From Oscillospiraceae bacterium (GTDB taxonomy: Bacteria; Bacillota; Clostridia; Oscillospirales; SIG627), in contig SVQQ01000007.1 of assembly GCA_015065265.1 (NCBI GenBank), positions 475 to 64,474 of the forward strand: a stretch of DNA of 64,000 bases, read 5' to 3'. Below are positions 1 to 63,988 of this stretch, in pieces. Below the pieces are notes generated by a model that saw only the letters and a list, made by a program, of their open reading frames with translations, was not told the DNA's origin and searched no databases. Within the stretch, counting starts at the first letter, position 1, and each line of letters begins with the position of its first letter. The position numbers and the translations under genes were made by a program.

Positions 1-594
1 TGGGGTGGGGGCTTTGCAGTATTCTCTGCCGAAAAGGACTATTCTGTGGCAAAAGTCGGACTGGTCTTCCTTTGGAATAAGGCGTGAAAGTTCCTTTTCG
101 CAGGTGACAGGGTCGGCTTTTGAAATAAGTCCCGTCTTATGTGAAATTCTGATACAATGGGTATCAGGCACGATTTTAGGGTCATGGAAGACGTCACCTA
201 ACATCAAATTTGCAATTTTCATACCAACGCCCGACAAATTTGTCAGGTCTTCGTATGTACTTGGTACTTCACCGTTATGCCTTTCGATAAGTTGTTTTGA
301 CATGCTTATAATGCTTTCGGCTTTTGTACGGAAAAGTCCGCAAGGGCGGATAATTTCTTCCACGTCCTTCTGCTCGGCAGTTGCAAATGCCTTAGCATCG
401 GGGAAGCGGACAAAGAGTTTTTTCGATACTTCATTCACTCTTTTATCGGTGCACTGTGCCGAAAGACGAGCCATTACAATGAGTTTAAAGGGGTCTTCTT
501 CATATTCCAGCGCACAAAGGGCATCGGGGTACTGCTCTTTTAGAAAAAGTGAAAATAGTTTTACCCTGTCGCTCTTTTTCGTGACTTTTGCCAT
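1..594 (-). CDS. nth: Endonuclease III (Nth), C-terminus cut by window edge
   Basis: Own minus-strand translation from the ATG at 594-592 gives MAKVTKKSDRVKLF...LTNLSGVGMKIANLMLG...FGREYCKA. This shows the helix-hairpin-helix motif and the start of the C-terminal Cys cluster. It is missing from the ORF track because no stop lies in the window. The + ORF 5..691 is its antisense shadow. Confidence 0.8.
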   Translation of the reverse strand, partial: MAKVTKKSDRVKLFSLFLKEQYPDALCALEYEEDPFKLIVMARLSAQCTDKRVNEVSKKLFVRFPDAKAFATAEQKDVEEIIRPCGLFRTKAESIISMSKQLIERHNGEVPSTYEDLTNLSGVGMKIANLMLGDVFHDPKIVPDTHCIRISHKTGLISKADPVTCEKELSRLIPKEDQSDFCHRIVLFGREYCKAPTP

Positions 595-3497: not shown

Positions 3498-3504
3498 CTG
3501 TTAT

Positions 3505-4151
3505 CCTTTCTTCGTCTCTTTATGTGCATTTTTGGTTAAAATACAGAAATGAAAAGATTATTAGAATTTTAATAAAACAAAATCATATACAAAAATTGAA
3601 TTTTTTATAGTTTTCTTTATATACAGTTTTCTGCGGAAAGAAATTCAAAGAATTTCTTGCAATTTTATCCAATTTCATTTCTTCGCGTGTTGCTCGGACT
3701 GCTGTACCCTTGTACAGCGACGCCGTCGCACTCCGCGATTTTTCCTCAAAAATGCTCTACTTTTTTGGGCTGTGGGCTGAGATTTAAAGATTAAAAATTT
3801 TATTTTCCCTCAAAGATACTCTCTCACTCTTTTCGGGTTGTGGGCTAATGTCTTTACAATGGATAGCAGAAGACGCGAGTACTAGCAAAAATCGTCTTTA
3901 ATCCTTGTATATAGGCTAATTTCAAATAAATTTATTGAAGATTTGCAAAGCAAATCAACCTTAATTCTGCATTTTGCATTTTGCATTCTGCATTTATAAT
4001 AATTGAAGATTTGCGAAGCAAATCAACCTTAATTTTACATTTGAGCGGGGGATTTTTGTGGTGTAGCGTTTAGCGGAACCTACAAAAATTCAAGCCATAC
4101 AGGGAGCGTAGCCAAGCATTTTGCGAGGCTAAAGCGAGTCGTACGGCATTT
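3505..4151 (+). repeat. Repeat locus A: m1 variant, m3, m4, two m5, m6, two half copies of the palindromic element, m7
   Basis: Direct matches to other loci. Region 3505-3732 resembles 49383-49610 and 4038-4151 resembles 49607-49721. Hairpins lie at 3638-3658 (AAGAAATTC/GAATTTCTT) and 3701-3718 (GCTGTAC/GTACAGC). m6 (3853-3919) resembles 34031-34098 inverted. Confidence 0.9.
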
Positions 4152-15642: not shown

Positions 15643-15643
15643 C

Positions 15644-16210
15644 CGTCTTTTTGGTTAAAACAGTTAATATAGTGCAGAATGCAGAATGCAAAATGCTGAA
15701 TTAAGGTTGATTTGCTTCGCAAATCTTCATTCATATACGTTTAGCGGAAAATCCGCTAAACGCACATAAATCAATTCAAATGCGAAGCTTTTGTTCCTTT
15801 ATTCTGCATTTTGCATTTTGCACTCTGCATTTACAACATACACACTAGAATATCAAATATATAAAGCGTAGCCTATGAAAATAGACTACGCTTTACTATG
15901 TCTTTATAATATCATTTCATTTCGGTTTTCACCAAAGAGACGAAAACCTCCGCACACAACCCGAAAAGAAAAGAGTATCTTTGAGGGAAAATCAACGTTT
16001 TACGAAGCCGTCGGCGTACTTACGTACGGCAGTGCGAGTAAACGTTGAAGAAATGAAATTGGAATTGTTCAAAAGAAGTTCGCAGAACTTCTTACATTAG
16101 AAAATTGTTGATTTGAGTGGCAAATACAAAAGAAATAGCCTATAAAAAATAGGCTACACCTTATTAAAAAAACACAACCCCATTTCATTTCGCTTTTCAC
16201 CAAAGAGACG
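15644..16210 (-). repeat. Repeat locus B. From the S41 stop on the minus strand: m1-m2-m3-m4-m5-m1-m2-palindromic element. A truncated + oriented m1 abuts the MORN gene stop.
   Basis: m1 copies lie at 15644-15661 (+), 15914-15942 and 16181-16210 (-). m2 lies at 15862-15895 with a degenerate copy at 16131-16165. m3 is at 16073-16093, m4 at 16003-16060 and m5 at 15943-15993. Confidence 0.9.
15671..15832 (-). mobile_element. ~163-bp palindromic MITE-like element (full copy)
   Basis: Imperfect ~34-bp terminal inverted repeats made of TGCARAA heptamers flank three hairpins: GATTTGC/GCAAATC, GTTTAGCGGA/TCCGCTAAAC and CAAATGC/GCATTTG. Confidence 0.6.
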
Positions 16211-16211
16211 T

Positions 16212-33883: not shown

Positions 33884-33901
33884 AGTTGTATAGAAAATGG
33901 A

Positions 33902-34427
33902 AAGTGCAGAATGCAGAATGCAAAATGCAGAATTAAGGAACAAATGCTTCGCATTTGAGTTGATTTTATTATAAGTTTAGCGGAAAATCCGCTAAACACT
34001 TAAAAAACTTAATCATTATAAAAGAGCGTTTTAGTCTATATACAAAGACTAAATCAACTTTTTGACAGTACTCACGTCTTCCGCTTTTTATTGTAAAAAC
34101 TTTAGTTCACAGCCCGTAAAAGCAAGAGTATCTTTGAGGGAAAATCGCTAATATAATTCAGAGTGCAGAATGATGAGTGCAGAGTTAAGGACGATTTGCT
34201 TTGCAAATCTTCAATAATTATAAGTTTAGCGGAAAATCCGCTAAACGCACATAAATCAATTCAAATGCGAAGCATTTGTTCCTTTATTCTGCATTTTGCA
34301 TTTTGCACTCTGCATTACAATATCCACAGAAGAATAGGCAACAAATAAAGCATAGTCCATTTTCATAGACTATGCTTTACTAAATCTCTTATAATGTCAT
34401 TTCATTTCGGTTTTCACCAAAGAGACG
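33902..34427 (-). repeat. Repeat locus C. From the RNHCP gene on the minus strand: m1-m2-palindromic element-m5-m6, then an inverted half element.
   Basis: m1 lies at 34397-34427, m2 at 34346-34379 (AAAGCATAGTC/GACTATGCTTT), m5 at 34101-34148 and m6 at 34031-34098. A half element (+ orientation) lies at 33902-33997. Confidence 0.9.
34157..34316 (-). mobile_element. ~163-bp palindromic MITE-like element (full copy)
   Basis: Near-identical to 57131-57293 and to the reverse complement of 52290-52452. Confidence 0.6.
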
Positions 34428-45667: not shown

Positions 45668-45720
45668 TTATTTTTCCTTCCAAAAAATTTTCTACATATA
45701 TAATAATATTCAACAGTTAC

Positions 45721-45749
45721 ATTATAACACATTCTCCTCAATCTTGCAA
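45721..45749 (-). promoter_or_regulatory. Candidate sigma-A promoter of dnaA
   Basis: The minus strand reads TTGCAA, a 17-nt spacer, then TGtTATAAT (extended -10). A repeat module m1 starts 11 nt upstream of the -35. Confidence 0.55.
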
Positions 45750-45759
45750 GAGTTAAATT

Positions 45760-46125
45760 CGTATCTTTGGTTAAAAACGAAATGAAAAAACTACTTAATT
45801 TTTAATAGAGTGCACTTTGTTTTTATGGACTATACTTTGCTGTTCTCTTTCTTTTCGGGTTGTGTGCTTAAGTTTTTGTCTTTTTGGTTAAAAACGAAAT
45901 GATATCATATACGTTTAGCGGATTTTCCGCTAAACTTATATAATATTTAATTCAAATGCGAAGCATTTGTTCCTAAATTCAGCATTCAGCATTCTGCACT
46001 CTGCATTTAAGATGTTTAGCGGATTTTCCGCTAAACTTATATAAAAAAGTGCAGTCTATTTTTCATAGGCTACACTTTTTGAAGTTATATTAACTTTTTA
46101 TTTTTATGTTTTCACCAGAAAGACG
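45760..46125. repeat. Repeat locus D. Forward: m1, degenerate m2, m5, m1, half palindromic element, extra GTTTAGCGG hairpin, m2. An inverted m1 abuts the radical-SAM gene stop.
   Basis: m1 copies lie at 45760-45788 and 45877-45903 (+) and at 46095-46125 (-). The hairpin GTTTAGCGGATTTTCCGCTAAAC occurs at 45913-45935 and 46014-46036. A TIR lies at 45970-46008 and m2 at 46044-46080. Confidence 0.85.
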
Positions 46126-47084
46126 TCAACGGAAAATTCGTCAGACAACTTTTTGAGGTTAACCTTCTTTTGCCCAAGGTATTGGGACAGGAGTTTTTCA
46201 GGAACTTCAAGAAAGACCTTTTCACCTTTTTTAAGGTCCATTTTGCGAAGTTTTTCCCGCATTTCGTCAAGGCGTAACCGAGATAAAATTAACTCCCCTA
46301 TTGCATCGTGATAGTCTCCTGCAATAACGTCGTCGGAGTGTAAACCTTCTCCGGATTGAAGGCCTATTCGGATAACGTCGACGTTGTTTTTTAAAAAAAG
46401 ACCAACAACTTTTGCCCCACGCTCCACAGTTTCGTCAAGGGTAGGCGGTTGATACTTTCCCGAAAGATAAAGGTCACCAAGGGCGGTGGAACTAAATACG
46501 ACAGTGGGGTAAACTCGGGCGCTTGTAGCCCCGTGGGAGATTATGTCAAGGGCAGTCTGCCTTTCATTTTCCTCGTTTCCCCCAAACATACCCGTCATCA
46601 TCTGCCCTGTCAGTTCAAAACCCTCTTTTACAATCAAATCCATTGCGTAAAGTGAGGTTTTGGCGTCGTGACCTCTCTTGTTAAGGGTCAAAACTTCGTC
46701 GTTTGTAGACTGAATTCCAAGTTCGATATTTGCAACTTTGTAAAACTTTAAAATACTGAGTATCTCTTCGTCAATATAATCGGGTCTGGTGGAAAGTCTT
46801 ATGGACGAAACTCGCCCCTCTTTGATGAATTTATTTGCGGTTTCAAGAAGTTTTATCATAAGAGAACGCTCAATTCCTGTAAAACTTCCGCCAAAAAATG
46901 CCACTTGAGGCACAAAGGACGAAATTGTCCCAAGTGCCTTTTCGATTTCTTCTTCAACTCCGTCCACGTCAAAGGAAGTTCTTCCCGAAATAGTCCTTTG
47001 ATTACAGAAAACACAATCGTTGGGGCATCCTATGTGGGGTACGAAAATAGGGATATTGGCGTGACGTTTCATGCCCTCTTCCAC
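46104..47084 (-). CDS. Radical SAM protein (ELP3/COG1243-like)
   Basis: Contains IPIFVPHIGCPNDCVFCNQ (CxxxCxxC). The last 7 codons (DVFLVKT) are encoded by repeat module m1. It overlaps cysS by 16 nt. Confidence 0.75.
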   Translation of the reverse strand: MEEGMKRHANIPIFVPHIGCPNDCVFCNQRTISGRTSFDVDGVEEEIEKALGTISSFVPQVAFFGGSFTGIERSLMIKLLETANKFIKEGRVSSIRLSTRPDYIDEEILSILKFYKVANIELGIQSTNDEVLTLNKRGHDAKTSLYAMDLIVKEGFELTGQMMTGMFGGNEENERQTALDIISHGATSARVYPTVVFSSTALGDLYLSGKYQPPTLDETVERGAKVVGLFLKNNVDVIRIGLQSGEGLHSDDVIAGDYHDAIGELILSRLRLDEMREKLRKMDLKKGEKVFLEVPEKLLSQYLGQKKVNLKKLSDEFSVDVFLVKT

Positions 47085-48460
47085 TTAGTTCCCTGAGGGG
47101 TATCTTCAAGGACAATTCCCTTGTTTTTGAGTTCTTCTCTGATTTCGTCGGCTCTCGCATAGTTCTTTTCTTTCTTTGCCGAAATTCTCTCGGAAATCAG
47201 GTCTTCAATCCACTTTGTGTCCTCTTCTTCTTCGGGAACGAGGAAGCCCATAAGTCCTACAAGTTCCTTATATATAGCGTAAATTTCTTCAAGGTCGCCT
47301 TTTGTAAGAGAAGTGTCGGAAATAAGGGTGTTAATCTTTCTTATCATTTCAAAAATGGCAGAAATTCCGTCTGCGGTATTGAAATCGTCGTCCATTGCGA
47401 CAATGAATTTTTCGCGGTATTCACCCAGTGCATTTATGTCTTCGGTCTTTGTGACACCGCCTTCTTTTGCATTTTTAAGAGCGTACTTTATTCCGTTTTC
47501 ACAGTTGTACATACGTTCAAGAGAAGCCTTTGACTGCTCTAAAATGTCTGCAGAGAAGTTAATGGGACTTCTGTACTGAGCAGAGACAAGGAAAAAGCGA
47601 ATTGCAGGATAGGAGTACTTTGCCGCAGCGTCACGGACGGTGAAGAAATTGCCAAGAGACTTTGACATTTTCTTGTTATCCACGTTTATATATCCGTTGT
47701 GGATAAAGGCACGGCAGAAAGGAACGCCGAAAGCGGCTTCAGACTGTGCAACTTCGTTTTCGTGATGTGGGAAAGTCAGGTCCTGACCGCCTCCGTGAAG
47801 GTCGATTGTCTTTCCGAGATATTTATCAACCATTGCCGAGCACTCGATATGCCAACCCGGTCTTCCTTTTCCCCAAGGGGAGTCCCAATAGGGTTCACCC
47901 TCTTTGTACGCTTTCCACAGAGCGAAGTCAAGGGGGTCGTGTTTTACGTCGTTTACGTCAATTCTCGCTCCGCTTTCAAGGTCGTCTACGTCAAAACCGC
48001 CAAGTCTGCCATAGTCCTTGAATTTACGTGCCGAGAAGTAAACGTCACCGTTTTCGGCAGGGTAAGCGTAGCCTTTTTCGATAAGGATTTTAATGATATT
48101 TATAATTTCTTCCATATTTTCCGTGGCTCTTGGATGGAAGGTGGCGGGAGTTATGCCAAGGCCTTTTGCATCGGTGAAATATTCTTCAATATACTTGTCT
48201 GCAACTGCCTTGACTGTGGTGTTTTCTTCCTTTGCTCTCTTTATCATTTTGTCGTCGATATCGGTGAAATTCTGTACGAAAGTTACCTTGTTTCCTCTAT
48301 ATTCGAGGTATCGGCGAAGCAGGTCGAAAATAACGAAACAACGTGCGTTTCCTACGTGGAAATAGTTATAAACCGTGGGGCCACAGGCATACATTCTCAC
48401 GGTGTTATCCTTAAAAACAAGTTCCTCTTTTTTCTTTGTAAGTGAATTATAAAACTTCAT
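47069..48460 (-). CDS. cysS: Cysteinyl-tRNA synthetase
   Basis: Contains HVGNARC (HIGH) and KMSKS. Confidence 0.95.
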
Positions 48461-48461
48461 A

Positions 48462-49094
48462 TTATTCTCCTTTTTCCAGTGTCTCTATTTTCTTTTGTAG
48501 TTTTTCAATTTCCGCCCTCATTCTGCAAAGTTCTTGGGAAACGGGGTCGGGAATGTGTATCTGGTCAAGGTCGGATTGTCTCTGACCGTCCCTTTTTACA
48601 ACTCGTGCAGGAGCGCCAACAGCAGTTGAATCGGGGGGAATTTCGGTAAGAACCACTGACCCTGCGGCAATTTTTGCCCTGTCCCCTACTTTGAAAGGGC
48701 CAAGAACCTTTGCCCCTGCGCCAACGAGGACACCGTTACCTAAGGTGGGATGTCTCTTTCCAATATCTTTTCCCGTACCGCCAAGGGTTACTCCTTGGTA
48801 AAGTGTACATTCATCACCAATTTCGGCAGTTTCGCCAATAACTACCCCTGAACCGTGGTCAATGAACAGCCCTCTGCCAATAGTCGCACCGGGGTGTATT
48901 TCAATGCCTGTAAAAAATCTGCCCGTTTGGGAGATAAGTCTGGCAATAAAGAAAAGTCGGTGTCTATAAAAGAAATTCGCAATTCTGTAATAAATCAAGG
49001 CGTGAAAGCCTGAATACAGGAAGAAAATTTCAAAAATATTTCTCGCGGCGGGGTCGCGGGATTTAATCGACTTCAAATCCTCAAATATCTTCAT
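48462..49094 (-). CDS. cysE: Serine O-acetyltransferase
   Basis: Has hexapeptide repeats and GIEIHPGATIG. Confidence 0.9.
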   Translation of the reverse strand: MKIFEDLKSIKSRDPAARNIFEIFFLYSGFHALIYYRIANFFYRHRLFFIARLISQTGRFFTGIEIHPGATIGRGLFIDHGSGVVIGETAEIGDECTLYQGVTLGGTGKDIGKRHPTLGNGVLVGAGAKVLGPFKVGDRAKIAAGSVVLTEIPPDSTAVGAPARVVKRDGQRQSDLDQIHIPDPVSQELCRMRAEIEKLQKKIETLEKGE

Positions 49095-49101
49095 TTAGGT
49101 T

Positions 49102-49721
49102 CCTTTCTTCGTCTCTTTGGTGAAAAACGAAATGAAATTGGGTATAGAATATAGTAAGGCGTAATCTGTTTTTAAAGTTTATGCTTTGTTTGTCATCTGT
49201 TCCAATATATAATTTTTTCAAAGTAAGAAGTTCTGCGAACTTCTTTTCATCTATTTCAATTTCATTTCTTCGTTTCTTGCTCGGACTACTGTACATAAGT
49301 ACAGTTACGCCTTCGCAATAAACGATTTTCCCTCAAAGATACTCTCTCTTTTCATTTGGGTTATGTGTTGAAGGCTCAAAGTCCTTTCTTCGTCTCTTTG
49401 GTGTGCATTTTTGGTTAAAATACAGAAATGAAAAGGTTATTAAGTTTTTAATAAAACAAAAACCATTCACAAATCTTAACTTTTTCAAAGCATTCTATAT
49501 ATACAGTTTTCTTCGGAAAGAAATTCTACGAATTTCTCTTGAATTTTTTATTTCATTTCTTCGCGTGTTGCTCGGACTGGCGTACCATTGTACGCCGACG
49601 CCTTCGCACTTGAGCGGGGGATTTTTGTGGTGTAGCGTTTAGCGAAACCTACAAAAATTCAAGCCATACAGGGAGCGTAGCCGAGCAGTGTGTGAGGCTA
49701 AAGCGAGTCGGACTGCATTTT
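49102..49721 (+). repeat. Repeat locus E, lying between cysE and its T-box: m1, degenerate m2, m3, m4, m5, then an m1 variant, m3 variant, m4, m7
   Basis: m1 lies at 49110-49138 and 49391-49435, m3 at 49225-49245 and 49519-49537, m4 hairpins at 49288-49305 and 49579-49596, m5 at 49321-49382 and m7 at 49607-49721. Confidence 0.9.
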
Positions 49722-49771
49722 ACATATCTTCCTTATGTATTATATAAGGGGAAGCGGGTTTTGGGTAAAAT

Positions 49772-49990
49772 AAAAAACCGCCCTCTGTCAAGAGGCGCGG
49801 TTGCGCGGTTCCACTCTTATTTATAACTTTTTCTTTTTTGCTTGTCCCGATTTCTCGGCGGCCGCACTTTCACAAAATAAGCAATAGACGTTCACACCAA
49901 ACACGTCCTCTCTGAATTGCTTTTTTCTTGTTACTCTTGCCAAACAGACTATCCTCTGCCGACTTGCAATATATTAAATTCAAAGTAGTT
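49772..49990 (-). promoter_or_regulatory. T-box riboswitch leader, probably Cys-specific
   Basis: The minus strand reads AAGAG-TGGAACC-GCGC-AACC-GCGC-CTCTT. This is the canonical antiterminator with a 7-nt UGGNACC bulge, where N=A fits the tRNA-Cys discriminator U73. It overlaps the terminator CCGCG(C)CTCT-TGAC-AGAGGGCGG-TTTTTT. Upstream elements are AGAGAG and GGTG. A candidate UGC specifier lies at 49864-49866. Confidence 0.85.
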
Positions 49991-50349
49991 CAGTATGAGT
50001 ATAGCATATAATAATACAAAAAGCAAGTCACAGGAGCACCCTATACTTTATTTTTATTTACGATTATCCGTAATTTGTGTTTTTGGATTTTGGGGCAAAA
50101 AAACACAAGATATAGTGTCTTTCACTTAAAAATCGCTCCCAAAAACTCAACTTCACAGGTCGGCTTTGGCAAATTTGCGGAAGGATGAGCAAAAATTTTT
50201 AGCAAAGTGACAAAAATACAGGCTTGTTTTTGGGCAAAATTAAGAGGATTTGATAATATTTTTACGAAAACACGTAAAATTTAACAAAAAAGCGTCAAGA
50301 TTTTGGTGGAAAATTGACGGAAAAAGACGGGTCAGGAAAATATTGTGAT

Positions 50350-50378
50350 TTGATTTATTTTTGCCTTTATGATAAAAT
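50350..50378 (+). promoter_or_regulatory. Candidate sigma-A promoter of the M23 peptidase gene
   Basis: TTGATT, a 17-nt spacer, then TGaTAAAAT (extended -10). Confidence 0.5.
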
Positions 50379-50419
50379 AACTACACTAAGAAAGATATGC
50401 CATAAAGGAGGTGTTACCC

Positions 50420-52177
50420 ATGGGACAGGATAATCTCGAGAACTCTCAGACAGCGGAGTCTTCAACTATCAACGAAAGTGGAAGAAGACCTGCGAGAAGA
50501 CAGACTTTTACCGGTCTTTACCGTACGTTCAGGCGTTCGGGATTGGGTAAAATCGACTCGGCATTCAACGCTCTTTACATATGCCAGACCAACAGGTGTT
50601 GTCGTGAGAACTTGAATTCCAACAACGTGGGCGACGGATTCTTTAGTCATCCCACAGGTTATTACAGTTCCAAGGCAGAGAGCATCAGACGTGCGGCGAA
50701 AACAAGAACTCTTAGTTTTCTTGAAAGGGTTGCGAAAATTCTTTCCCCTCTTACAAGAAGTGTTGAGAAAAAGGGCAATTCACCTGTAATTTTCGACAAC
50801 AGTGAGGCTTGTCTTAAAAAGGCGCTCTGCTTGTTAAAACGCTCTTCAAAGGCGGTTTGTGTAACAGCTGCTGCACTGCTTTTCGCAATTTCCATTTACA
50901 TAAACAGTCAAAAGAACACAGTTGTGGAAGTTAAGATAGACGGTGTGGTAATTGGCGAAGTTAAGAGTCTTGAAACGGTAGACACCGCGCTCGACCGAGT
51001 TAATGCCAAGATTTCTTCTCTTATGGGCGAGGTTTTCACTTTCCCTCATGAAGTTTCCTTTACTATAAAGAACAAGAACAGTTCCGATTGTATGGATATA
51101 GACAGCGTTTGCGACGTTTTATATACTTACACTGAAGAATACATAACCACAGCCTATGGGTTGTACGTTGATTCTCATCTTATTGCGGTTTTGAATTCCA
51201 GAGACGATATTGTATCCGTCCTTGACACCGTTAAATCCGAGCACATGGCACTGACGGGTGAAGATGAGGATATTGCAAATAATATCGAGATAAAGTATCA
51301 GGAATACGCTAAAAACAGTATTATAGACAAGGAAACACTCGTTTCTATGTTCTCGGTTGTCCCTGAAAAGAAAGAGGATAACGCAAGAGTTGACGCGCTT
51401 CTTTCTTCTAACGAAAACGTTTCCTTTACTCTTGGCGGCGAGATTGTACCCCTCGGACAACGCCTTGCAGAAGCGGTATCCGGCGAAGAAGGACAAAACA
51501 CAATCGTCCTTGACTTTGTAACTTATGAAGAAGTAACTCTTCGAGAGACTGTTCCTTTTGAGACCGAGTATATTACCGACGACACTTATTATACAAGTCA
51601 GAAGGTTGTACAACGTTCAGGTAAAAACGGAAAGGCTAGTAACACTTACCGAGTAAAATACGTAAACGGAGTTGAAGACTCCCGAGTACTTATTAATTCT
51701 ACAACTATTCAGGAAGGACGTTCTTGCATTATAAAGGTTGGAACGAGAATTCTTCCCGAAACTATGACCCTTGATGAAAATGACGGAAAATATATGATAA
51801 ATCCTGTTCCCTTGGCGTATGTCAGCGACTACTTCGGTTGGCGTACACTTAACGGAAGACGTACTTATCACCAAGGTCTTGACCTTGCCGCCATGAAGGG
51901 AACTCCCATTTATGCTGCGGCATCGGGAGAAGTAATTTTGGCAAGTTACAGTTCTTCCTACGGATACGTAGTGAAAATTGAACATGCCGACGGACTTGTT
52001 ACCGTCTATGCCCATTCTTCAAAACTCCTTGTAAAAGTTGGAGACGTAGTTGAACAGGGCGAAGAAATCGCCAGAGTTGGCTCAACAGGTTATTCCTTTG
52101 GATACCACTGTCATTTTGAAGTTATAAAAGACGGAGAAAAGGTTGACCCTGAAGATTATATTTACACTCTTGAGTGA
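50420..52177 (+). CDS. M23 family metallopeptidase with G5 domain and membrane anchor
   Basis: ATG at 50420 lies 8 nt after AAGGAGG; the ORF-track GTG at 50411 is inside the RBS. The G5-like segment is QKVVQRSGKNGKASNTYRVKYVNG. The M23 motifs are HQGLDLAA...HFEV. Confidence 0.8.
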   Translation: MGQDNLENSQTAESSTINESGRRPARRQTFTGLYRTFRRSGLGKIDSAFNALYICQTNRCCRENLNSNNVGDGFFSHPTGYYSSKAESIRRAAKTRTLSFLERVAKILSPLTRSVEKKGNSPVIFDNSEACLKKALCLLKRSSKAVCVTAAALLFAISIYINSQKNTVVEVKIDGVVIGEVKSLETVDTALDRVNAKISSLMGEVFTFPHEVSFTIKNKNSSDCMDIDSVCDVLYTYTEEYITTAYGLYVDSHLIAVLNSRDDIVSVLDTVKSEHMALTGEDEDIANNIEIKYQEYAKNSIIDKETLVSMFSVVPEKKEDNARVDALLSSNENVSFTLGGEIVPLGQRLAEAVSGEEGQNTIVLDFVTYEEVTLRETVPFETEYITDDTYYTSQKVVQRSGKNGKASNTYRVKYVNGVEDSRVLINSTTIQEGRSCIIKVGTRILPETMTLDENDGKYMINPVPLAYVSDYFGWRTLNGRRTYHQGLDLAAMKGTPIYAAASGEVILASYSSSYGYVVKIEHADGLVTVYAHSSKLLVKVGDVVEQGEEIARVGSTGYSFGYHCHFEVIKDGEKVDPEDYIYTLE

Positions 52178-52178
52178 T

Positions 52179-52596
52179 TGTCTCTTTGGTGAAAATACAG
52201 AAATGAAATGATATTATAAAGACATAGTAAAGCGTAGTCTTTAAAAAAGGCTACGCTTTATATATTTGATATTCTAGTGTGTATGTTGTAAATGCAGAGT
52301 GCAAAATGCAAAATGCAGAATAAAGGAACAAATGCTTCGCATTTGAGTTAATTTTATTATACGTTTAGCGGATTTTCCGCTAAACTTATAATTATTGAAG
52401 ATTTGCAAAGCAAATCAACCTTAATTCTGCACTCATCATTCTGCACTCTGAATTATATTAGCGATTTTCCCTCAAAGATACTCTTCTCTTTTCATTTAGG
52501 CTGTGTGTTGAAAGTTTGAGTCTCTTTGGCTAAAACCGAAATGAAATTATAATAAATAGTAAAGCATAGTCTATAAAAATAGGCTATGCTTTATAT
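52179..52596 (+). repeat. Repeat locus F: m1-m2-palindromic element-m5-m1-m2, starting 2 nt after the M23 stop
   Basis: m1 lies at 52179-52209 and 52518-52547, m2 at 52228-52260 and 52560-52593, and m5 at 52461-52517. Confidence 0.9.
52290..52452 (+). mobile_element. ~163-bp palindromic MITE-like element (full copy, reference orientation)
   Basis: The left TIR is TGCAGAGTGCAAAATGCAAAATGCAGAATAAAGG. The right TIR, reverse-complemented, is TTCAGAGTGCAGAATGATGAGTGCAGAATTAAGG, matching at 27 of 34 positions. Three internal hairpins are centred on GTTTAGCGGATTTTCCGCTAAAC. Confidence 0.6.
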
Positions 52597-52614
52597 ATTT
52601 TCTTTTTTGTTTGG

Positions 52615-53358
52615 TTACATATCTAAAGTTTTGAAGGTATAGCCTTGGCTTTTTAACGTTCTAATAAACTCACCTAAAATTTTGGCATTGGTGGAAGAAG
52701 TGGGGTGGAGCAGAATTACAGCACCGTTGTGCATACGTGACAAAAGTTTATTTATGGCGGCATCGGGGGACATCTGTGCCTTTTCGTCCCAATCTGCATA
52801 GGCGAGACTCCAAAATACCGTTTTATAGCCTAATTCCTGCGCCCATTTCAGATTTTGTTCCGAAAATGCACCGCAAGGGGGTCGGTAAAACTTTGCCAAA
52901 TCTTTTCCCGTCTTTTCTTTAAAGTCCTTTTCAAGACCTTCTATTTCTTCCTTGAAACTTTCAAAGTCACTCATTTTTGTCATATCCTTGTGATGAGACG
53001 TGTGGTTCGCACATAAATGTCCGTCTGACACGATTGAGTCAAGGTATTCACCGTTTACTACGGTGTGTCGCAAGAGGAAAAAGGTTGCCTTTACGTCTTC
53101 CTCTTTCAAGGTGTCGATGATTTTTTTAACGTTTTCGTTTTCGTATCCTAAATCAAAGGTTAGATATACGCTTTTTTCATCTGGACCTATATAAAAACCG
53201 CCGTATTCGTCTAAAAAATGTCCCTCAACTGCCCCCGACGGACGAGTGTTGTCGCAGGTGGGGTTGTAGTACCACTCTATACGCTTTGTGCCTGTACTTG
53301 CTAAAACGCCTGTTGACAGAAGGCAGACACAAAGAAAAATATTGATAAGTTTTTTCAT
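52615..53358 (-). CDS. Polysaccharide deacetylase family protein (PdaA-like), secreted
   Basis: Has a signal peptide, an NodB-type motif (YLTFDLGYE) and the His motif CANHTSHH. Confidence 0.8.
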   Translation of the reverse strand: MKKLINIFLCVCLLSTGVLASTGTKRIEWYYNPTCDNTRPSGAVEGHFLDEYGGFYIGPDEKSVYLTFDLGYENENVKKIIDTLKEEDVKATFFLLRHTVVNGEYLDSIVSDGHLCANHTSHHKDMTKMSDFESFKEEIEGLEKDFKEKTGKDLAKFYRPPCGAFSEQNLKWAQELGYKTVFWSLAYADWDEKAQMSPDAAINKLLSRMHNGAVILLHPTSSTNAKILGEFIRTLKSQGYTFKTLDM

Positions 53359-53535
53359 TTTTTCACCTGTTGTTTTTACTTTTGGGGAACTTTTGTTCCC
53401 TTTTTATATTCTGCCCCGAAAGGAAAGATTGTTTCGTGACTTCTGTCAAAATCTCTTTTTTAAAAAACACTTTATTTTTGTAAAAAATTATGGTAAACTA
53501 CAAATATAAAAGAAAAGATAAAGGAAATTTTTGTT

Positions 53536-55569
53536 TTGAAAAAATGCGAACTTTTAGCCCCTGCAGGTTCATATGAAGCCTTTGTTGCGGCAATAAAAGC
53601 AGGTGCCGATGCCGTTTATCTCGGTACAGGAAGCCACAACGCCAGAATAGGCGCGAAAAACTTCACCGAAAATGAACTTGAAAGAGCCATCGGTGAAGCA
53701 CGTCTTTACAACAGAAAAGTTTATATAACTCTAAACACTCTTGTTTCCGACAGGGAAATGGGCGACGTTCTTTCTTCTGTTAAAACCCTTTTACAAATGG
53801 GCGCAGATGCCTTTATTGTACAGGATTTAGGACTTATTTCGGCAATAAAGGAAGCCTTCCCTTGTGCCGAAATTCATGCAAGTACCCAGTGTGTCACCCA
53901 TAGCTTAGAACAGATAAAAGCCCTTGAAACGCTGGGCGTTAAAAGAGTGGTTTTGTCACGTGAACTGGACAGGGACAACATAAGACATATTTGTCGTACG
54001 TCCAATTTAGAAATTGAAGTTTTCGTACACGGGGCGCTATGTGTCTCGCATAGCGGTGGATGTCTTTTCTCTTCTCTTGTAGGAGGGAGAAGCGGTAACA
54101 GAGGCGAATGTGCTCAGCCTTGCCGACTTCCCTATACAGTTAAAAACCTTGACAACAAATACCCTTTAAGTCTGCGTGACCTGACCTTGTCAGAGCACGT
54201 TGAAGAACTGCTTGAAATGGGAGTAAACTCCCTTAAAATAGAGGGTAGAATGAAAAGTCCCGACTACGTTTCGGGAGTTGTGTCGGTGTTCAGACGACTC
54301 CTTGACGAAAAGAGAAATGCAACGCCCCAAGAAGTAACAGAACTTGAAAAAATATTCAGCCGACAAGGCTTTACCGACGGTTATTTTAAGAAGCGTTTAG
54401 GACGGGATATGTTCGGTGTCAGACGTGACCTTGACAAAGAGAGGACAAGAGAGATAGAAAGCGTAACTCCCACTCTTCCTAAAATTCCCCTTCAGGCAAA
54501 ACTTGAGGTTCTTAAAGATGGCGGAAGCCTTTCTTTTGAAAGAGAAGGATATTTTGCAAAGGTTTCACTCCCCGCTCCAAGTCCTGCTGAAAAACTTGCC
54601 CTTGATTATAATTCCGCCTATGAACAGGTGTCAAAACTCGGCGCAACGCCCTTTGAAATAGAGACTTTCAACTTTTTTGCAGACGGTGAATACTTCTATC
54701 CAAAGTCTGTTTTGAATGGCGCAAGGCGAGAGGTGGCGGAGAAACTTTATAAAAACATCACAAAAAGAGAAGAAAACGTAAATCAAAATCCCCTTAAACC
54801 TATTTTGCCCGAAATGAGCGAAAAAAATGAAAACGTTTTGATTTTCGCTCCTCACAGAAAGGTGACAAACGAAGAGATTTCCTCTCTTCTAAGCCTTGAT
54901 ATCCAGAGAATTTACCTTCCTGCATTCAGATTCCCCGAGAAAATTAAAAACATAGGACAAATTGGTCTTGTGTTGCCTACAATTCTATTTGATTCTCAAA
55001 GGGAAGAATTTGAAAAGGAACTTGTAAGGCTTAAAAAGCTTGGCGTAAAGTATGCCTACACTGAAAATTTAGGTGTAGGGAAAATCGCCATAGAAAAAGG
55101 CTTTATTACTCTTGCGGGACCTCGCATGAACGCATATAATTCAAGGACTGTAAAAGTTCTGAAAGATATGGGATTTTCGGGGGCAATTCTCTCTCACGAG
55201 ATGCACCCTTCGGCAAGGCGTGACACAGTTAAGAGTATGCCGACAGGTGAGTTTATCTACGGTCGTGCACCCCTTATGACTATGGAAAACTGCGTTATGA
55301 ACATAAAGGACTCTTGCCAAGATAAATGCGACTGGCACACTTGTCAAAAGGGCTTGACTTTGCACGACAGAAAGGGTATCGACTTCCCCGTTTTCCCTGA
55401 ATTTTTCCATAGATGTCAGATTTATAACAGTGTGCCTACCTTTATTGCCGACAAAGAAAGTTTTGTAAATTACAGGGCAATTCTTATAACTGATGAAAAG
55501 AACGTTTTTGACACAGTTAAAAAGGTGTTGAATGGCATCTTGCCTGAAAGGTATACAAGAAAAGGATAG
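53536..55569 (+). CDS. U32 family peptidase/collagenase-like protein
   Basis: 677 aa. ELLAPAGSYEAFVAAIKAGADAVYLG and the conserved Cys cluster (ECAQPCRLPY) are typical of U32. Confidence 0.85.
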   Translation: MKKCELLAPAGSYEAFVAAIKAGADAVYLGTGSHNARIGAKNFTENELERAIGEARLYNRKVYITLNTLVSDREMGDVLSSVKTLLQMGADAFIVQDLGLISAIKEAFPCAEIHASTQCVTHSLEQIKALETLGVKRVVLSRELDRDNIRHICRTSNLEIEVFVHGALCVSHSGGCLFSSLVGGRSGNRGECAQPCRLPYTVKNLDNKYPLSLRDLTLSEHVEELLEMGVNSLKIEGRMKSPDYVSGVVSVFRRLLDEKRNATPQEVTELEKIFSRQGFTDGYFKKRLGRDMFGVRRDLDKERTREIESVTPTLPKIPLQAKLEVLKDGGSLSFEREGYFAKVSLPAPSPAEKLALDYNSAYEQVSKLGATPFEIETFNFFADGEYFYPKSVLNGARREVAEKLYKNITKREENVNQNPLKPILPEMSEKNENVLIFAPHRKVTNEEISSLLSLDIQRIYLPAFRFPEKIKNIGQIGLVLPTILFDSQREEFEKELVRLKKLGVKYAYTENLGVGKIAIEKGFITLAGPRMNAYNSRTVKVLKDMGFSGAILSHEMHPSARRDTVKSMPTGEFIYGRAPLMTMENCVMNIKDSCQDKCDWHTCQKGLTLHDRKGIDFPVFPEFFHRCQIYNSVPTFIADKESFVNYRAILITDEKNVFDTVKKVLNGILPERYTRKG

Positions 55570-55571
55570 TT

Positions 55572-56129
55572 ATGAAAATAATACTTGCTTCAAATTCCCC
55601 TCGCAGAAAAGAAATTCTTTCAAGTTTCGGCTTTGAGGTGGTGACAGTACCCTCTGCACCCGAAAATCCTCCGCCAGAAAACTTGACAGTGGAAGAAAAG
55701 GTGTCCTTCCTTGCCCTTGAGAAAGGACTTGACGCAGAAAAACTTTACCCCGATACTCCCGTTGTCTCTGCCGATACGGTGGTGGTTTTGGGGGAGAGTA
55801 TTATGGGAAAACCCAAAGACCGACAAAACGCCTTCGAGATGCTGCGCGCCCTTTCGGGCAAGACTCATAAGGTCATTACCGCCTATACTCTCTTTTATAA
55901 AGGGCAGAGGGTCAGCAGAAGCGTTGTTACCGACGTAACCTTTTATGAACTGACAGATGAGGAAATTTTAGATTACGTCGACACAGGAGAAGTTTATGAC
56001 AAGGCAGGTTCGTACGGTATTCAAGGAAAGGGCGCAGTTCTTGTGAAGGGCATACAAGGCGACTATCTTAACGTTGTGGGATTTCCTCTTTCTGATTTTT
56101 ATCGCTCTTATCTCTGGGCTGTCAAGTGA
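55572..56129 (+). CDS. maf: Maf-like nucleoside triphosphate pyrophosphatase
   Basis: Contains ILASNSPRRKEIL...SADTVV...DKAGSYGIQG. Confidence 0.9.
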   Translation: MKIILASNSPRRKEILSSFGFEVVTVPSAPENPPPENLTVEEKVSFLALEKGLDAEKLYPDTPVVSADTVVVLGESIMGKPKDRQNAFEMLRALSGKTHKVITAYTLFYKGQRVSRSVVTDVTFYELTDEEILDYVDTGEVYDKAGSYGIQGKGAVLVKGIQGDYLNVVGFPLSDFYRSYLWAVK

Positions 56130-56140
56130 GAAAAGAATAT

Positions 56141-56169
56141 AAAAAGTGCAGTTATAACTGCACTTTTTT
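56141..56169 (+). terminator. Intrinsic terminator after maf
   Basis: AAAAAGTGCAGTTA/TAACTGCACTTTTT palindrome followed by a T run. Confidence 0.8.
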
Positions 56170-56175
56170 GACACT

Positions 56176-56303
56176 TTTAGCGGAAAATCCGCTAAACACG
56201 GAGAATGTTTTTTCAAAAAAGAGACAAAAAAGTATAGCCTGTTTATATAGGCTATACTTTTTAAAATCTAAATAAACTTTTTTAGGCTTTAACCAAAGAG
56301 ACG
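56176..56303 (-). repeat. Repeat locus H (minimal): GTTTAGCGG-type hairpin, m2, partial m1 abutting the mgtC stop
   Basis: TTTAGCGGAAAATCCGCTAAA lies at 56176-56196. The m2 variant AAAAAGTATAGCCT/AGGCTATACTTTTT lies at 56227-56265. The m1 remnant GGCTTTAACCAAAGAGACG lies at 56285-56303. Confidence 0.8.
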
Positions 56304-57005: not shown

Positions 57006-57102
57006 TTCTGCTTTCTCCTTTTAAAGTTTTATACATTGTAACATAAAAGAAAGCAAAATACAAGTGTTAAATCTATGTAAAATTATTTTTTTGTTATTTT
57101 TG

Positions 57103-57942
57103 TATTTTTGAGGGAAAATCGCTAATATAATTCAGAGTGCAGAATGATGAGTGCAGAATTAAGGTTGATTTGCTTTGCAAATCTTCAATAATTATAAGTT
57201 TAGCGGAAAATCCGCTAAACTTATATAAAAACCAACTCAAATGCGAAGCATTTGTTCCTTTATTCTGCATTTTGCATTTTGCACTCTGCATTTACAACAT
57301 ACACACTAGAATATCAAATATATAAAGCGTAGCATATTTTCATAAGCTACGCTTTACTAAATCTTTATACTAACTTTTCATTTCTGTATTTTCACCAAAG
57401 AGACGAAAATTTAAGCACACAGCCCGAAAAGAGAAGAGTATCTTTGAGGGAAAATCGCGGAGTGCGAAGGCGTCGGCGTACAATGGTACGCCAGTCCGAG
57501 CAACACGCGAAGAAATGAAATTGGAATAATTAAAAAGAAGTTCGTGAGAACTTCTTACATTAAAAGAGTTGTACAAAGAAAAAGAAAATAAATAAAGCGT
57601 AGCCTTTTTTAAAGACTACGCTTTACTATGTCTTTATAATATCATTTCATTTCTGTATTTTCACCAAAAAGACGAAAATTTAAGCACACAGTTTAAATGA
57701 AAAGAGAGAGTATTTTTGAGGGAAAATTCGCAATCCCGAAGCCCCGTCGCTGTACTTACGTACAGCAGTGCGAGGGAGGGCGAAAGAAATGAAAATAAAT
57801 CAAGAAAATTTCGAAGAAATTTTTTCATCAGAAGAAGTGTAAAATAACACAAAAAAACAAATAAAGCGTAGCATATTTTCATAAGCTACGCTTTACTAAA
57901 TCTTTATACTAACTTTTCATTTCGGTTTTAACCAAAAAGACG
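57103..57942 (-). repeat. Repeat locus G. From the fba stop on the minus strand: two full m1-m2-m3-m4-m5 units, then m1-m2-palindromic element-m5(partial).
   Basis: m1 copies lie at 57915-57942, 57641-57674 and 57375-57405, a period of about 270 bp. m2 lies at 57862-57895, 57593-57625 and 57323-57356. m4 hairpins lie at 57749-57766 and 57475-57492. m3 lies at 57802-57826 and 57535-57556. Confidence 0.92.
57131..57293 (-). mobile_element. ~163-bp palindromic MITE-like element (full copy)
   Basis: About 95% identical by eye to the reverse complement of 52290-52452. Confidence 0.6.
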
Positions 57943-57957
57943 ATAAAAGATACTAAA

Positions 57958-63690: not shown

Positions 63691-63806
<116 letters not shown>

Positions 63807-63814
63807 TTTTATAT

Positions 63815-63840
63815 TCCTCCTTAGCTCAGTCGGTAGAGCG
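63815..63840 (+). pseudogene. Orphan 5' fragment of tRNA-Asn (acceptor arm plus D arm only)
   Basis: TCCTCCTTAGCTCAGTCGGTAGAGCG is identical to the first 26 nt of the tRNA at 63913. The downstream sequence cannot form anticodon or T arms. Confidence 0.6.
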
Positions 63841-63912
63841 ATTGAAAGCAAATAAACCGGAAAATTAGCTGCTAAAGAGGAGTCAAAAATAAATGCTGAT
63901 TTTCCACAATAT

Positions 63913-63988
<76 letters not shown>

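Follow-up and report, generated by a model that had tools for sequence, protein, structure and literature searches.

Mosaic intergenic repeats with termini at gene boundaries and a predicted terminator hairpin in an uncultured gut Clostridia genome

The locus and its repeat family

The stretch of DNA examined here (64,000 nt, the window) comes from the genome of an uncultured gut member of the Clostridia and carries, among others, genes for an M23 peptidase, a MORN protein, an S41 peptidase, RNHCP, a radical SAM protein, MgtC, FBA, Rrf2, CysE and a polysaccharide deacetylase (names confirmed against Pfam). Interspersed with them are arrays of a previously undescribed mosaic intergenic repeat family, whose outward-facing end is the module denoted m1 (Table 1). 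Adding 28.7 kb of adjoining sequence of this genome to the window gave one contiguous region of 92.7 kb, and the repeats cover about 7% of the 93 kb examined. This region holds 25 m1 copies, 16 at array ends and nine internal; a 13-mer of m1 has 14 matches at two or fewer mismatches against 1.5 expected, a number reached in none of 100 shuffles, and the exact m1 pattern also matches JGI contigs L001-L004 and L006.

Table 1. Positions in the window of the repeat features discussed, with strand and genic context
Feature	Position	Strand	Context
m1x (long m1 variant, CCTTTCTT extension)	3505..3572	+	antisense to Rrf2
array B	15643..16211	.	whole spacer of convergent MORN and S41 genes; outward m1 at both ends
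m1 copy, terminal repeat only	15644..15663	+	1 nt past the working TGA of MORN
m1 copy	16178..16210	-	S41 peptidase: 1 nt past its working TGA (16212-16214)
m1 copy	34395..34427	-	RNHCP ORF reads through; TGA 34428-34430 out of frame
array D	45760..46125	.	spacer from the radical SAM stop to the start of gene 44279-45667
m1 copy	46093..46125	-	radical SAM ORF reads through
m1 copy antisense to cysE	49110..49142	+	gene strand: rc(m1)-AAGAAAGGA-ACCTAA-ATG (cysE start 49092-49094)
internal m1x copy, same CCTTTCTT extension	49391..49450	+	inside an array
array F, m1m2-m4-m3-m4b-m5-m1m2	52178..52614	+	spacer of convergent M23 peptidase and polysaccharide deacetylase genes
m1 copy (TGTCTCTTTGGTGAAAATACAGAAATGAAATGA)	52179..52211	+	G5/M23 peptidase: 1 nt past its working TGA (52175-52177)
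m2 hairpin GTAAAGCGTAGTC...GGCTACGCTTTAT, then ATATTTGATA	52227..52261	+	-20.5 kcal/mol
m1 copy	56271..56303	-	flush with the working TGA of MgtC (56304-56306)
array H	57102..57942	-	from the FBA stop to the MgtC promoter; three tandem units
m5 and linker, example	57407..57456	-	TTTTCCCTCAAAGATAC, an imperfect inverted repeat of m1

Module order is fixed in the 12 arrays across the 92.7 kb: units of about 225-300 nt run m1-m2-(spacer hairpin-mX, or m4-m3-m4b)-m5, drawn from at least nine module types with two alternative cores, and a conserved linker of about 33 nt chains them into arrays of 0.2-1 kb. The closing module, m5, repeats m1 in inverted and imperfect form, the outward m1 reading GTCTCTTTGG-TGAAAA[YC]CG and the reverse complement of m5 GTATCTTTGAGGGAAAATCG; they align as GT[C/A]TCTTTG[-/A]G[T/G]GAAAA[Y]CG and bound the units with terminal inverted repeats, as in miniature inverted-repeat elements (MITEs), and in the tabulated m5 example the outward reading is GTATCTTTGAGGGAAAA against GTCTCTTTGG-TGAAAA for m1. 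In one unit (15644-15942) m1 itself stands at both ends, the MORN-side copy occupying, in a minus-oriented unit, the far-end slot that is usually m5's. The tandem arrangement is plain in array H, with m1 at 57942, 57674 and 57405 (a period of about 269 nt), an intact m2 in each unit (57862-57895, 57591-57627 and 57323-57356) and an end exactly at the m5 terminal repeat (57102, ...CAAAAATAC). All nine internal m1 copies come after m5 and the linker, and each of the 16 array-terminal copies turns its 5' end towards the neighbouring gene, so that it reads in sense where the array follows a gene and in antisense where it precedes one (Rrf2, cysE, PolA). The gene-sense orientation of m1 at 3' ends, which the first-pass annotation had treated as a separate fact, thus follows from m1 being the outer terminal repeat.

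The arrays have no conserved ORF, and the units are small, non-coding and multicopy, a further trait of MITEs. A protein search with a repeat-derived ORF gave no homologue, Rfam at the gathering threshold returned only 5S rRNA and a tRNA from the window and, at E<=1 over 45600-58000, only spurious miRNA-type matches on m2 and a sub-threshold T-box, and a literature search on the m1 sequence yielded only unrelated primer matches. Several readings of m1 were tried and discarded: a helix closing it (GUCUCUUU with AAAGAC) forms in the MFE structures of some copies but not in the consensus, and is not a family feature; a promoter (GTGAAA, 17 nt, TGnTATTAT) is present only in a few variants; and a mini-ORF (ATG AAA TGA) is of inconsistent length between copies and survives solely within the ribosome-footprint reading discussed below.

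Junctions with gene 3' ends

In the window, m1 meets a gene 3' end seven times, and in six of these a TGA immediately precedes it, as the first-pass annotation had reported. The junctions read (slash, start of m1) GAG TGA T/TGTCTCTTTGGTG at the M23 peptidase, GAA TGA C/CGTCTT at MORN (TGA 15640-15642) and, on the minus strand, AGA TGA A/CGTCTC at the S41 peptidase, TTC TGA/CGTCTC at MgtC, AATGA/CGTCTC at RNHCP and GTTGA/CGTCTT at radical SAM (TGA 46126-46128); the seventh, at FBA, has TAA, 15 nt and then CGTCTT. The TGA was also correctly described as the functional stop in the first four and as out of frame in RNHCP and radical SAM, where the ORFs stop within m1 (34397 and 46104) and m1 encodes, in the same frame, the final 9-10 codons of the former (VSLVKTEMK-stop) and 6-7 of the latter (VFLVKT-stop). 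A TGA would end 0-1 nt upstream of a randomly chosen position with a background probability of 0.035, giving about 1e-8 (binomial) for six in seven, a count that covers m1-side contacts only. Arrays touch gene 3' ends in the window by other modules at three places (g30801 at 33830, the deacetylase at 52615, Maf at 56129), and docking is likewise not confined to m1 in one array whose mY end overlaps the final eight codons of the HhH-GPD gene. Internal m1 copies, claimed to lack the TGA, generally do so, except at 52519, where a TGA overlaps the boundary (TTTGA/GTCTC).

Five junctions outside the window broaden the picture: TAA/CGTCTC at g252, TAG tac/CGTCTC at PolA, TAA atgg/TGTCTT at an FGGY kinase, TGA TGA/CGTCTC at adh_short and, at CNNM, an ORF that continues for 12 codons within m1 past a relic TAA. 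Among the 12 junctions, all from one contiguous 93-kb region, eight have m1 0-4 nt past a working stop, three have an ORF that reads 7-12 codons into m1 (RNHCP, radical SAM, CNNM) and one has a stop-to-m1 gap of 15 nt (FBA). Could chance or gene calling produce this, ORFs running to the first stop and AT-rich repeat ends being rich in stop triplets? It is true that each of the three frames of m1 meets a stop codon within about 36 nt and that the background alone puts a stop triplet 0-4 nt away at a rate of 0.22, but 11 of 12 junctions have one (~6e-7, binomial), the pattern recurs in the five junctions outside the hypothesis-forming set, the working stops precede m1 and coincide with the C-terminal residue of the orthologues, and the triplets are missing from internal copies. 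Junction counts, background rate and orthologue stops have effectively refuted this explanation, to which we attach almost no credence.

Specificity for TGA, as claimed from the window, did not hold up: the outside junctions carry TAA, TAA, TAG, TGA-TGA and a relic TAA, and when stop identity was compared with local usage (TAA 43, TGA 24, TAG 7), TGA at 7/12 junctions, relics counted, was only marginally enriched over its 32% share (24/74; p ~0.05). We do not read m1 as a free-standing module seeking TGA, but as an outer terminal repeat. A related reading, which we consider unlikely, is that a transposase or recombinase sets the m1 terminus beside a T(G/A)A-like target, stops being the commonest tolerated targets and TGA/CGTCTC the preferred joint, the element possibly completing a TGACGTC motif. 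It would account for a TGA 0-1 nt before m1 in 7/12 junctions against 0.035 by chance, for the three TGAs without a stop function (at RNHCP, at radical SAM and, as the second of two, at adh_short, GTT TGA TGA/CGTCTC) and for the 7-mer TGACGTC common to four junctions; yet the triplet-to-m1 gap varies over 0-4 nt, four junctions have TAA or TAG, FBA has neither these nor TGA within 15 nt, no unit or array has a duplicate of the putative target at its opposite end, the TGA excess given stop docking is the marginal one above, and neither the mY-side overlap with HhH-GPD nor the equally precise placement at start codons is explained.

Orthologues show that the stops belong to the genes and are not supplied by the repeat. 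PolA (...AKL versus ...AKQ) and adh_short (...AYSGV in all three) share their exact C-terminal position with their orthologues, MORN ends one residue earlier than its own, and these stops are native; in RNHCP and radical SAM, homology to orthologues ends where m1 begins. The earlier proposal of a mobile or recombining stop-plus-terminator cassette is accordingly retained for a repeated 3'-end cassette of mobile or recombining appearance, and given up, on the PolA, adh_short and MORN orthologues, for the element-supplied stop.

The same proximity might be functional, m1 being an RNA signal within the footprint of the terminating ribosome and kept beside the stop by selection, such that m2 folding or mRNA 3'-end stability is modulated, for instance, by ribosomes translating the upstream gene or an m1 mini-ORF (SD-like GGTGA, then ATG-AAA-TGA). 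We find this improbable. Besides the eight of 12 working stops 0-4 nt away, it can appeal to the near invariance of the first 16 nt of m1 as opposed to the 25 nt before m2, which are variable with indels, and to the presence in most copies of GGTGA, 8-10 nt and ATG, opening a mini-ORF of 2-3 codons in about 10/18. Constant termini around a variable interior are, however, the ordinary signature of a transposition filter; pairing of GUCU with AGAC occurs in some copies only and no m1 helix is conserved; nine internal and the antisense start-side copies keep m1 without a nearby stop; the mini-ORF can extend to about 39 codons (16210), and AT-rich sequence is in any case expected to contain short ORFs; and three genes tolerate translation through m1.

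The m2 hairpin as a predicted terminator

RNAalifold predicts the m2 stem as the only consensus helix, none that is conserved involving m1. This helix has 14 pairs, with 96% of cells paired and compensatory changes at five, its score being matched by none of 500 shuffles; it begins 42-49 nt inside the array terminus. In the sense direction the tail is TTTAT(A/T)T(A/G)TTT, with 5-8 T in 10 nt, interrupted (TTTATATATTT), several copies having been found by consensus scan, which scored those at 52227-52261 and 57591-57627 as terminator-like; the antisense tail is TTTACTATGTC. The intrinsic-terminator geometry ascribed to m2 is borne out as regards the hairpin, less clearly as regards the interrupted T-rich tail, and corrected as regards the stem, of 14-17 bp with A/U pairs instead of 10-11.

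Thirteen of 16 copies have predicted stabilities between -14 and -22 kcal/mol, the range of the 3'-end and internal copies, among them those of the S41 peptidase (~16135-16167, -14.1), RNHCP (34346-34379, -21.9), radical SAM (~46046-46082, -15.5) and MgtC (56227-56262, -17.3, T-rich on both sides). Two copies on the 5' side of genes are weaker, at -10.4 kcal/mol in the cysE leader (49155-49190, decayed) and -3.1 kcal/mol, the weakest hairpin, in the 5'-side m1/m2 copy of array D (45760-45838). An intact m2 lies past the stop in 10 of 12 3' junctions (the adh_short hairpin scored by a simple stem scan only), and the last m2 of array F (52559-52594) is about 15-20 nt from the deacetylase stop (52615-52617). 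It is absent at the PolA junction, which has the m1x variant, and from two arrays that must be read through, array A (3498-4151) and the HhH-GPD/PolA array. The integrity of m2 therefore depends on context, being strong and sense-oriented downstream of genes and absent or decayed where read-through is needed, the placement expected of a terminator, and transcripts may end at m2.

The start-codon side

An SD-like 9-mer, AAGAAAGGA, occurs five times in the 92.7 kb, four of them fused to the reverse complement of m1 and three of these four lying 6 nt before the ATG of a gene, Rrf2, cysE or PolA, the true start of PolA being set by its orthologue. On the Rrf2 strand the order is rc(m1x)-AAGAAAGGA-TAACAG-ATG (start 3495-3497). 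Since the internal m1x copy carries the same CCTTTCTT extension, the 9-mer is part of the repeat, not of the genes.

Relatives, distribution and mobility

None of m1, m2, m3, m5 and mX was found in about 220 kb sampled from relatives. The nearest of these (U32 peptidase 57-59% identical, GH2 87%) have rearranged neighbourhoods and, being so distant and devoid of the modules, are usable only for placing native stops. The exact m1 pattern had no match in genome, metagenome and viral contig collections, from which the organism is absent, making the result uninformative on distribution. At least six metagenome contigs of the species are all 100% identical and offer no empty site or strain polymorphism. 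Inspection of all termini found no unit or array bounded by a direct repeat, that is, no target-site duplication as MITEs have. The 92.7 kb has no transposase with matching ends, and none of the called genes of the fetched loci has a Y1_Tnp Pfam match. The architecture and lineage restriction of the repeats suggest that they may be mobile.

Comparison with known repeat systems

Docking flush with stops and terminator-like behaviour appear, by analogy, to have precedents in known repeat families (BOX, SPRITE, REP). SPRITE, a Firmicute interspersed repeat of one species group described in 2011, has a long stem followed by a U-rich tract, is terminator-like and enriched at CDS 3' ends, strongly so near those of convergent CDSs, and has been proposed as a co-opted terminator (PMC3049150); judged by description, it is a single hairpin, whereas here the hairpin is one module of a TIR-ended, arrayed unit, and it is described only as within 200 bp of genes, in contrast to a terminus 0-4 nt from the stop. 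The pneumococcal BOX (boxA-boxB(n)-boxC) is also modular, with a variable number of modules and terminal inverted repeats, and lies flush with CDS 3' ends, some ORFs running into it as they do here; 36 Streptococcus pneumoniae genes take their stop codon from it without truncation relative to orthologues (PMC3049150). It forms one tight structure without a terminator module, while the present family has at least nine module types and two alternative cores, and its neighbours' stops are native and mostly just outside the repeat (8/12). MITEs such as Correia/CREE, ERIC and RUP share the small non-coding units, imperfect inverted-repeat bounds and many intergenic copies, and can give neighbours terminators, promoters or processing sites (PMC10969869), but here no target-site duplication is detectable and units are joined by a conserved linker instead of being independently inserted.

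REP elements and their mosaic clusters, BIMEs, resemble the arrays in being clusters of hairpin modules in extragenic DNA, with proposed roles in termination and mRNA stability, and GTAG REP termini often supply a TAG stop (Di Nocera et al. 2013, PMC3733652). If m1 CGTC were the cleavage tag of a palindromic repeat moved by an IS200/IS605-like tyrosine transposase, the arrays would be strict BIMEs; the CGTC start of m1, the BIME-like mosaics, the absent target duplications, as Y1 transposases predict, and the frequent location of tagged REPs near or overlapping ORFs (PMC3733652) all speak for this. In tagged REPs, though, the tetranucleotide (GTAG/CGTC) is directly beside a 20-40-bp palindrome, whereas in m1 it is followed by unstructured TCTTTGGTGAAAA, m2, the closest helix, lying 42-49 nt away; the first base is C, T or A while GTCT is invariant; the pairing of m1 with m5 follows the logic of TIRs, not of REPs; the modules are AT-rich and much longer; and no RAYT gene was seen in the 92.7 kb. 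We rate this origin very unlikely.

Similar in placement are the MIRUs of mycobacteria, which Supply et al. are said to have described in 1997 as tandem intergenic repeats in operons, with ends overlapping the upstream stop and the downstream start. They are reportedly 40-100-bp direct repeats with short ORFs that couple translation. The arrays studied here similarly end at the stop of the upstream and the start of the downstream gene, but are hairpin-rich mosaics, mostly predicted to terminate transcription, and carry an SD only in the antisense orientation.

Discussion

We regard the family as lineage-restricted mosaic interspersed repeats co-opted as terminators, a kind already known of which this family is a new member. 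The explanation we prefer, at roughly even chances, is that m1 bounds a non-coding, MITE/BIME-like mosaic as its outer terminal repeat, the termini being docked at the selective limit and m2 serving as the terminator of the abutting gene. The arrays would have replaced whole intergenic regions, native terminators included, in this Ruminococcaceae/Oscillospirales genome, and their termini would now stand at the limit tolerated by selection on neighbour genes: 0-4 nt past the gene's own stop, whichever codon this is, or occasionally a few codons within a dispensable C-terminus. In the opposite orientation, the element-borne SD-like AAGAAAGGA would be set 6 nt before a start codon, and the m2 hairpin and T-tract would act as intrinsic terminator of the abutting gene. 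Flush docking would result from insertion near gene ends and subsequent loss of the redundant native flank down to the selective limit, possibly through transposase-mediated adjacent deletions. The repeats thereby appear to have overwritten native terminators, the HhH-GPD/PolA operon junction (the two genes overlap in a relative) and the T-box/cysE riboswitch-to-gene spacer. A relative's adh_short has its own terminator 10 nt past the stop, absent in this genome.

A trimming ratchet alone does not predict 8/12 junctions at 0-4 nt, and trimming leaves unexplained the non-functional TGAs that abut CGTCTC at RNHCP, at radical SAM and, as the second of two, at adh_short. These three could be relic or tandem stops, or could reflect a real sequence preference.

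A bolder account, for which we hold out little hope, makes the mosaic a mobile "plug-in intergenic region", its termini actively placed at translation boundaries, and not trimmed to them, through the stop-codon sequence (TGA/CGTCTC) or the translation or transcription machinery. If that were true, one face would bring a terminator after the stop and the other an SD 6 nt before the start, and a single selfish repeat system would have come to control 3'-end formation, and part of translation initiation, in many housekeeping genes (PolA, FBA, cysE, the Rrf2 operon). Tight stop and start placement that was mechanistic rather than selective would amount to a new targeting principle, which the present data do not require.

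The value of the family is mostly practical and evolutionary. Annotation of metagenome-assembled genomes has to reckon with ORFs that extend into repeats, as at the C-termini of RNHCP, radical SAM, CNNM and HhH-GPD and the N-terminus of PolA. More broadly, mosaic repeats can turn over intergenic regulatory DNA wholesale outside the well-studied Proteobacteria and streptococci.

Docking beside stop codons

Module m1 of the mosaic intergenic repeat family is marked by a 13-mer with 14 matches in the window at ≤2 mismatches, against 1.5 expected. Every named junction was re-read in the sequence, with Pfam confirming the identities of the genes concerned, and the first-pass annotation holds in that TGA precedes m1 at 6/7 junctions, is the working stop in all four genes for which this was claimed (M23 and S41 peptidases, MORN, MgtC), and lies out of frame (TGA-CGTCT) in the RNHCP and radical SAM genes, whose ORFs continue into m1 in one common frame (D-V-S/F-L-V-K-T...). 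Because a TGA ends 0-1 nt 5' of a random position in this DNA with a frequency of 0.035, this tally is far beyond chance.

Edge-gene look-ups and joining of the pieces provided 28.7 kb of extra DNA of the same genome, with no array in the right flank of the window and four further arrays, with five new gene-3' junctions, in the left. Across all 12 junctions the gap between working stop and m1 is 0-4 nt in eight and 15 nt in one, and the ORF enters m1 in three; a stop triplet lies 0-4 nt from m1 in 11/12, against a background of 0.22 (binomial ~6e-7). The placement of m1 beside stops is thus reproduced, unlike the specificity for TGA. Among local stops, TAA accounts for 43, TGA for 24 and TAG for 7; even with out-of-frame triplets taken as relics of stops, TGA at 7/12 junctions yields p ~0.05. 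A genuine sequence preference, with insertion directed to a TGA-like target beside the m1 end, would suit the three non-functional TGAs that immediately adjoin CGTCTC, and appears to us unlikely.

Positions and sequence context of junctions, modules and associated genes
Feature	Position	Context
M23 peptidase junction		TGA-T-TGTCTC; TGA is working stop
MORN junction		TGA-C-CGTCTT; TGA is working stop
S41 peptidase junction		TGA-A-CGTCTC; TGA is working stop
MgtC junction		TGA-CGTCTC; TGA is working stop
FBA junction		TAA, 15-nt gap, m1; seventh m1 junction
252-aa gene junction	left flank	TAA-CGTCTC
PolA 3' junction	left flank	TAG-tac-CGTCTC
FGGY kinase junction	left flank	TAA-atgg-TGTCTT
adh_short junction	left flank	TGA-TGA-CGTCTC
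CNNM junction	left flank	ORF extends 12 codons within m1; out-of-frame TAA 2 nt before m1
HhH-GPD/array overlap	window 1-594 + flank, -47..594	minus strand
PolA	L019 11995-14595; L023 16003-18603 (loci of same genome)	left flank of window
CCTTTCTT	window 3505-3512, 49102-49109, 49383-49390; flank -595..-588 (L019)	other strand of AAGAAAGGA, on 5' end of some m1 copies
m3 copies	window 15737-15762, 33973-33998, 34222-34247, 45911-45936, 46012-46037, 52361-52386, 56176-56198, 57196-57221	palindrome
m4/m4b heptad copies	window 15671-15721, 33901-33966, 52288-52354, 57130-57179, others; L015 1508-1574	
mY, host copies	window 4041-4151 (+), 49610-49720 (+); L019 11446-11566 (-), 17164-17274 (-)	
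mY, relative	L015 8222-8330 (-)	one copy; U32 peptidase of relative 59% identical; nhmmer E = 4e-16
Candidate T-box leader	window 49788-49954 (-)	5' of cysE
cysE	window 48462-49094 (-)	
5S rRNA gene	window 63691-63807	RNA genes within 63691-63985

Origin of the stops

The proposal that the element supplies the stops fails on comparison of gene 3' ends with orthologues from two relatives, whose loci place the stops as native. PolA ends at the same final residue position as its orthologue (...AKL-stop versus ...AKQ-stop), adh_short at the same final residue in 3/3 (...AYSGV-stop), and MORN one residue earlier; in RNHCP homology ends at ...NPEN and the last 10 residues are encoded by m1, as are the last 6-7 of radical SAM. 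In a relative, a hairpin terminator native to adh_short lies 10 nt 3' of the stop; no such native terminator is left here. Native stops with a lost native terminator indicate that the arrays replaced native 3' flanks.

Docking at other ends

In the HhH-GPD (endonuclease III-like) gene, mY, read in reverse complement, encodes the last eight codons and the stop, at an array end without m1; this gene and PolA overlap by 20 nt in a relative, and here a 520-nt array separates them. Inverted copies of m1x, the long m1 variant, bracket PolA, one per gene end, and gene callers add 11 N-terminal codons (MHTKETKKGLK) starting within m1x; the orthologue begins at the second Met, from which the true start is set at M12 of the called ORF. 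Antisense m1 bears an extension, AAGAAAGGA, a 9-mer found five times in 92.7 kb, 4/5 fused to reverse-complemented m1, and three of these four, at Rrf2, cysE and PolA, lie 6 nt 5' of ATG. From this position and its complementarity to the usual Firmicute 16S 3' tail, the repeat seems to provide the ribosome-binding sites of all three genes. Given the mY overlap and m1 at start codons, arrays lie flush with coding sequence at whichever end meets it, and docking is specific neither to m1 nor to stops.

Module order and the identity of m1

Read with HMMs of the visible modules, every array follows a strict order, m1m2 leading to either a spacer hairpin and mX or m4-m3-m4b, then to m5 and a conserved linker of ~33 nt that joins it to the next m1m2; a long unit variant reads m1x ... 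mX m5 m5 ... m4b mY. Outward readings of m5 (GTATCTTTGAGGGAAAATCG) and m1 (GTCTCTTTGG-TGAAAA(Y)CG) are imperfect inverted repeats, the unit at 15644-15942 is bounded by m1 itself on both sides, and array H (57102-57942, between FBA and MgtC) terminates exactly at an m5 repeat, which together identify m1 as the module that bounds a MITE/BIME-like unit on its outside. In a terminal copy, the 5' end of m1 necessarily faces the flanking gene, a rule kept by 16/16 terminal copies. The gene-sense orientation noted earlier is indeed seen at gene 3' ends but is a consequence of this geometry, terminal m1 being antisense at gene 5' ends; m5 and linker precede the nine internal copies.

A perfect palindrome of 10 bp, GTTTAGCGGA-NNNN-TCCGCTAAAC, makes up module m3; its 4-nt loop is AAAA or TTTT by copy, so that m3 takes either orientation even where the rest of an array is co-oriented. 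In modules m4/m4b, three to four copies of a heptad, TGCAGAA/TGCAAAA (read as TTCTGCA from the opposite strand), stand beside a short hairpin (CAAATGCTTCGCATTTG or TTGAAGATTTGCAAAGCAAATCAA) and might serve as an array of sites for a protein that binds RNA or DNA; a similar element in the relative's locus L015 lies 4 nt 3' of a stop codon. The ~110-nt mY, with four copies in 93 kb of genome (window copies 93% identical to each other), has a consensus fold of 31 pairs, five with compensatory changes in the relative, and no Rfam match; a conserved structured RNA, absorbed into the arrays, is one possible identity.

m2 as a predicted terminator

The m2 hairpin is real and conserved: its consensus helix has 14 pairs, five of them with compensatory changes, 96% of cells are paired, and 0/500 shuffles reach the score. 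No conserved structure includes m1, which speaks against its acting in translation-termination coupling, a role we think improbable. A consensus scan found several m2 copies terminator-like, and both internal copies and those behind genes fold at -14 to -22 kcal/mol, the weakest being two copies 5' of genes (-10.4 kcal/mol in the cysE leader, -3.1 kcal/mol at 45760). Both arrays needing read-through, array A (3498-4151) and the HhH-GPD/PolA array, lack m2; its tail is T-rich in sense (TTTATATATTT) and poorer in antisense (TTTACTATGTC), and array E, between T-box and cysE, is oriented so that m2 is a poor terminator. Such strength and placement are the pattern predicted by a functional, orientation-dependent terminator, as which m2 probably serves. 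The candidate T-box leader is sub-threshold, scoring 59.9 bits (E = 3e-11) where the gathering score is 93, and ~690 nt of array E, with a decayed m2 copy, separate it from cysE.

Proposed mechanism

We give about half of our credence to a scheme in which a mosaic repeat, mobile or once mobile, would have inserted close to gene ends, redundant native flank would then have been lost up to a limit imposed by selection, and m2 would have been co-opted as terminator of the neighbouring gene. Transposase-mediated adjacent deletions, established in IS biology, keep the element end exact while flanking DNA is removed, and would leave termini sharp and stop identity variable, let some ends overshoot slightly into dispensable C-termini, and make other array ends dock in an equivalent way. 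With no target duplications at the array or unit ends examined, no parent transposase in 92.7 kb of genome, no empty site in the metagenome contigs or relatives compared, and the abutting non-functional TGAs, full confidence in this scheme is not warranted.

Host lineage and relation to known repeats

Metagenome contigs, at least five from JGI and one from ENA, match the window (G+C 41%) at 100% identity over 11-15 kb. Its U32 peptidase is 40-46% identical to the nearest relatives among 185,579 species genomes, with a best match of 59% in a large protein collection, low values that point to an isolated, uncultured Clostridia lineage. After the 5S rRNA gene come two near-identical tRNA-like starts ~98 nt apart (63811, 63909), of which only 63909 reached the Rfam tRNA threshold.

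Neither Rfam, for the repeat family, nor the literature, for the m1 sequence, gave a match, and the family is absent from ~220 kb of relatives, except that one relative has modules resembling m4b and mY. The exact m1 pattern has 3-5 matches per JGI metagenome contig fetched by protein look-up; its zero matches in genome, metagenome and viral collections, where the organism is evidently not included, say nothing on distribution. Termini of GTAG-tagged REPs often supply a TAG stop (Di Nocera et al., PMC3733652). The family does not fit the definition of a tagged REP, no palindrome lying next to the tag, and a classic MITE would be expected to show target duplications, unlike this family. In pneumococci, the repeat SPRITE is terminator-like and enriched where convergent genes end, and 36 genes take their stop codon from a modular BOX element with no truncation (Croucher et al., PMC3049150). 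The m1 family resembles SPRITE in being terminator-like and at gene 3' ends, and BOX in being modular and at stops.
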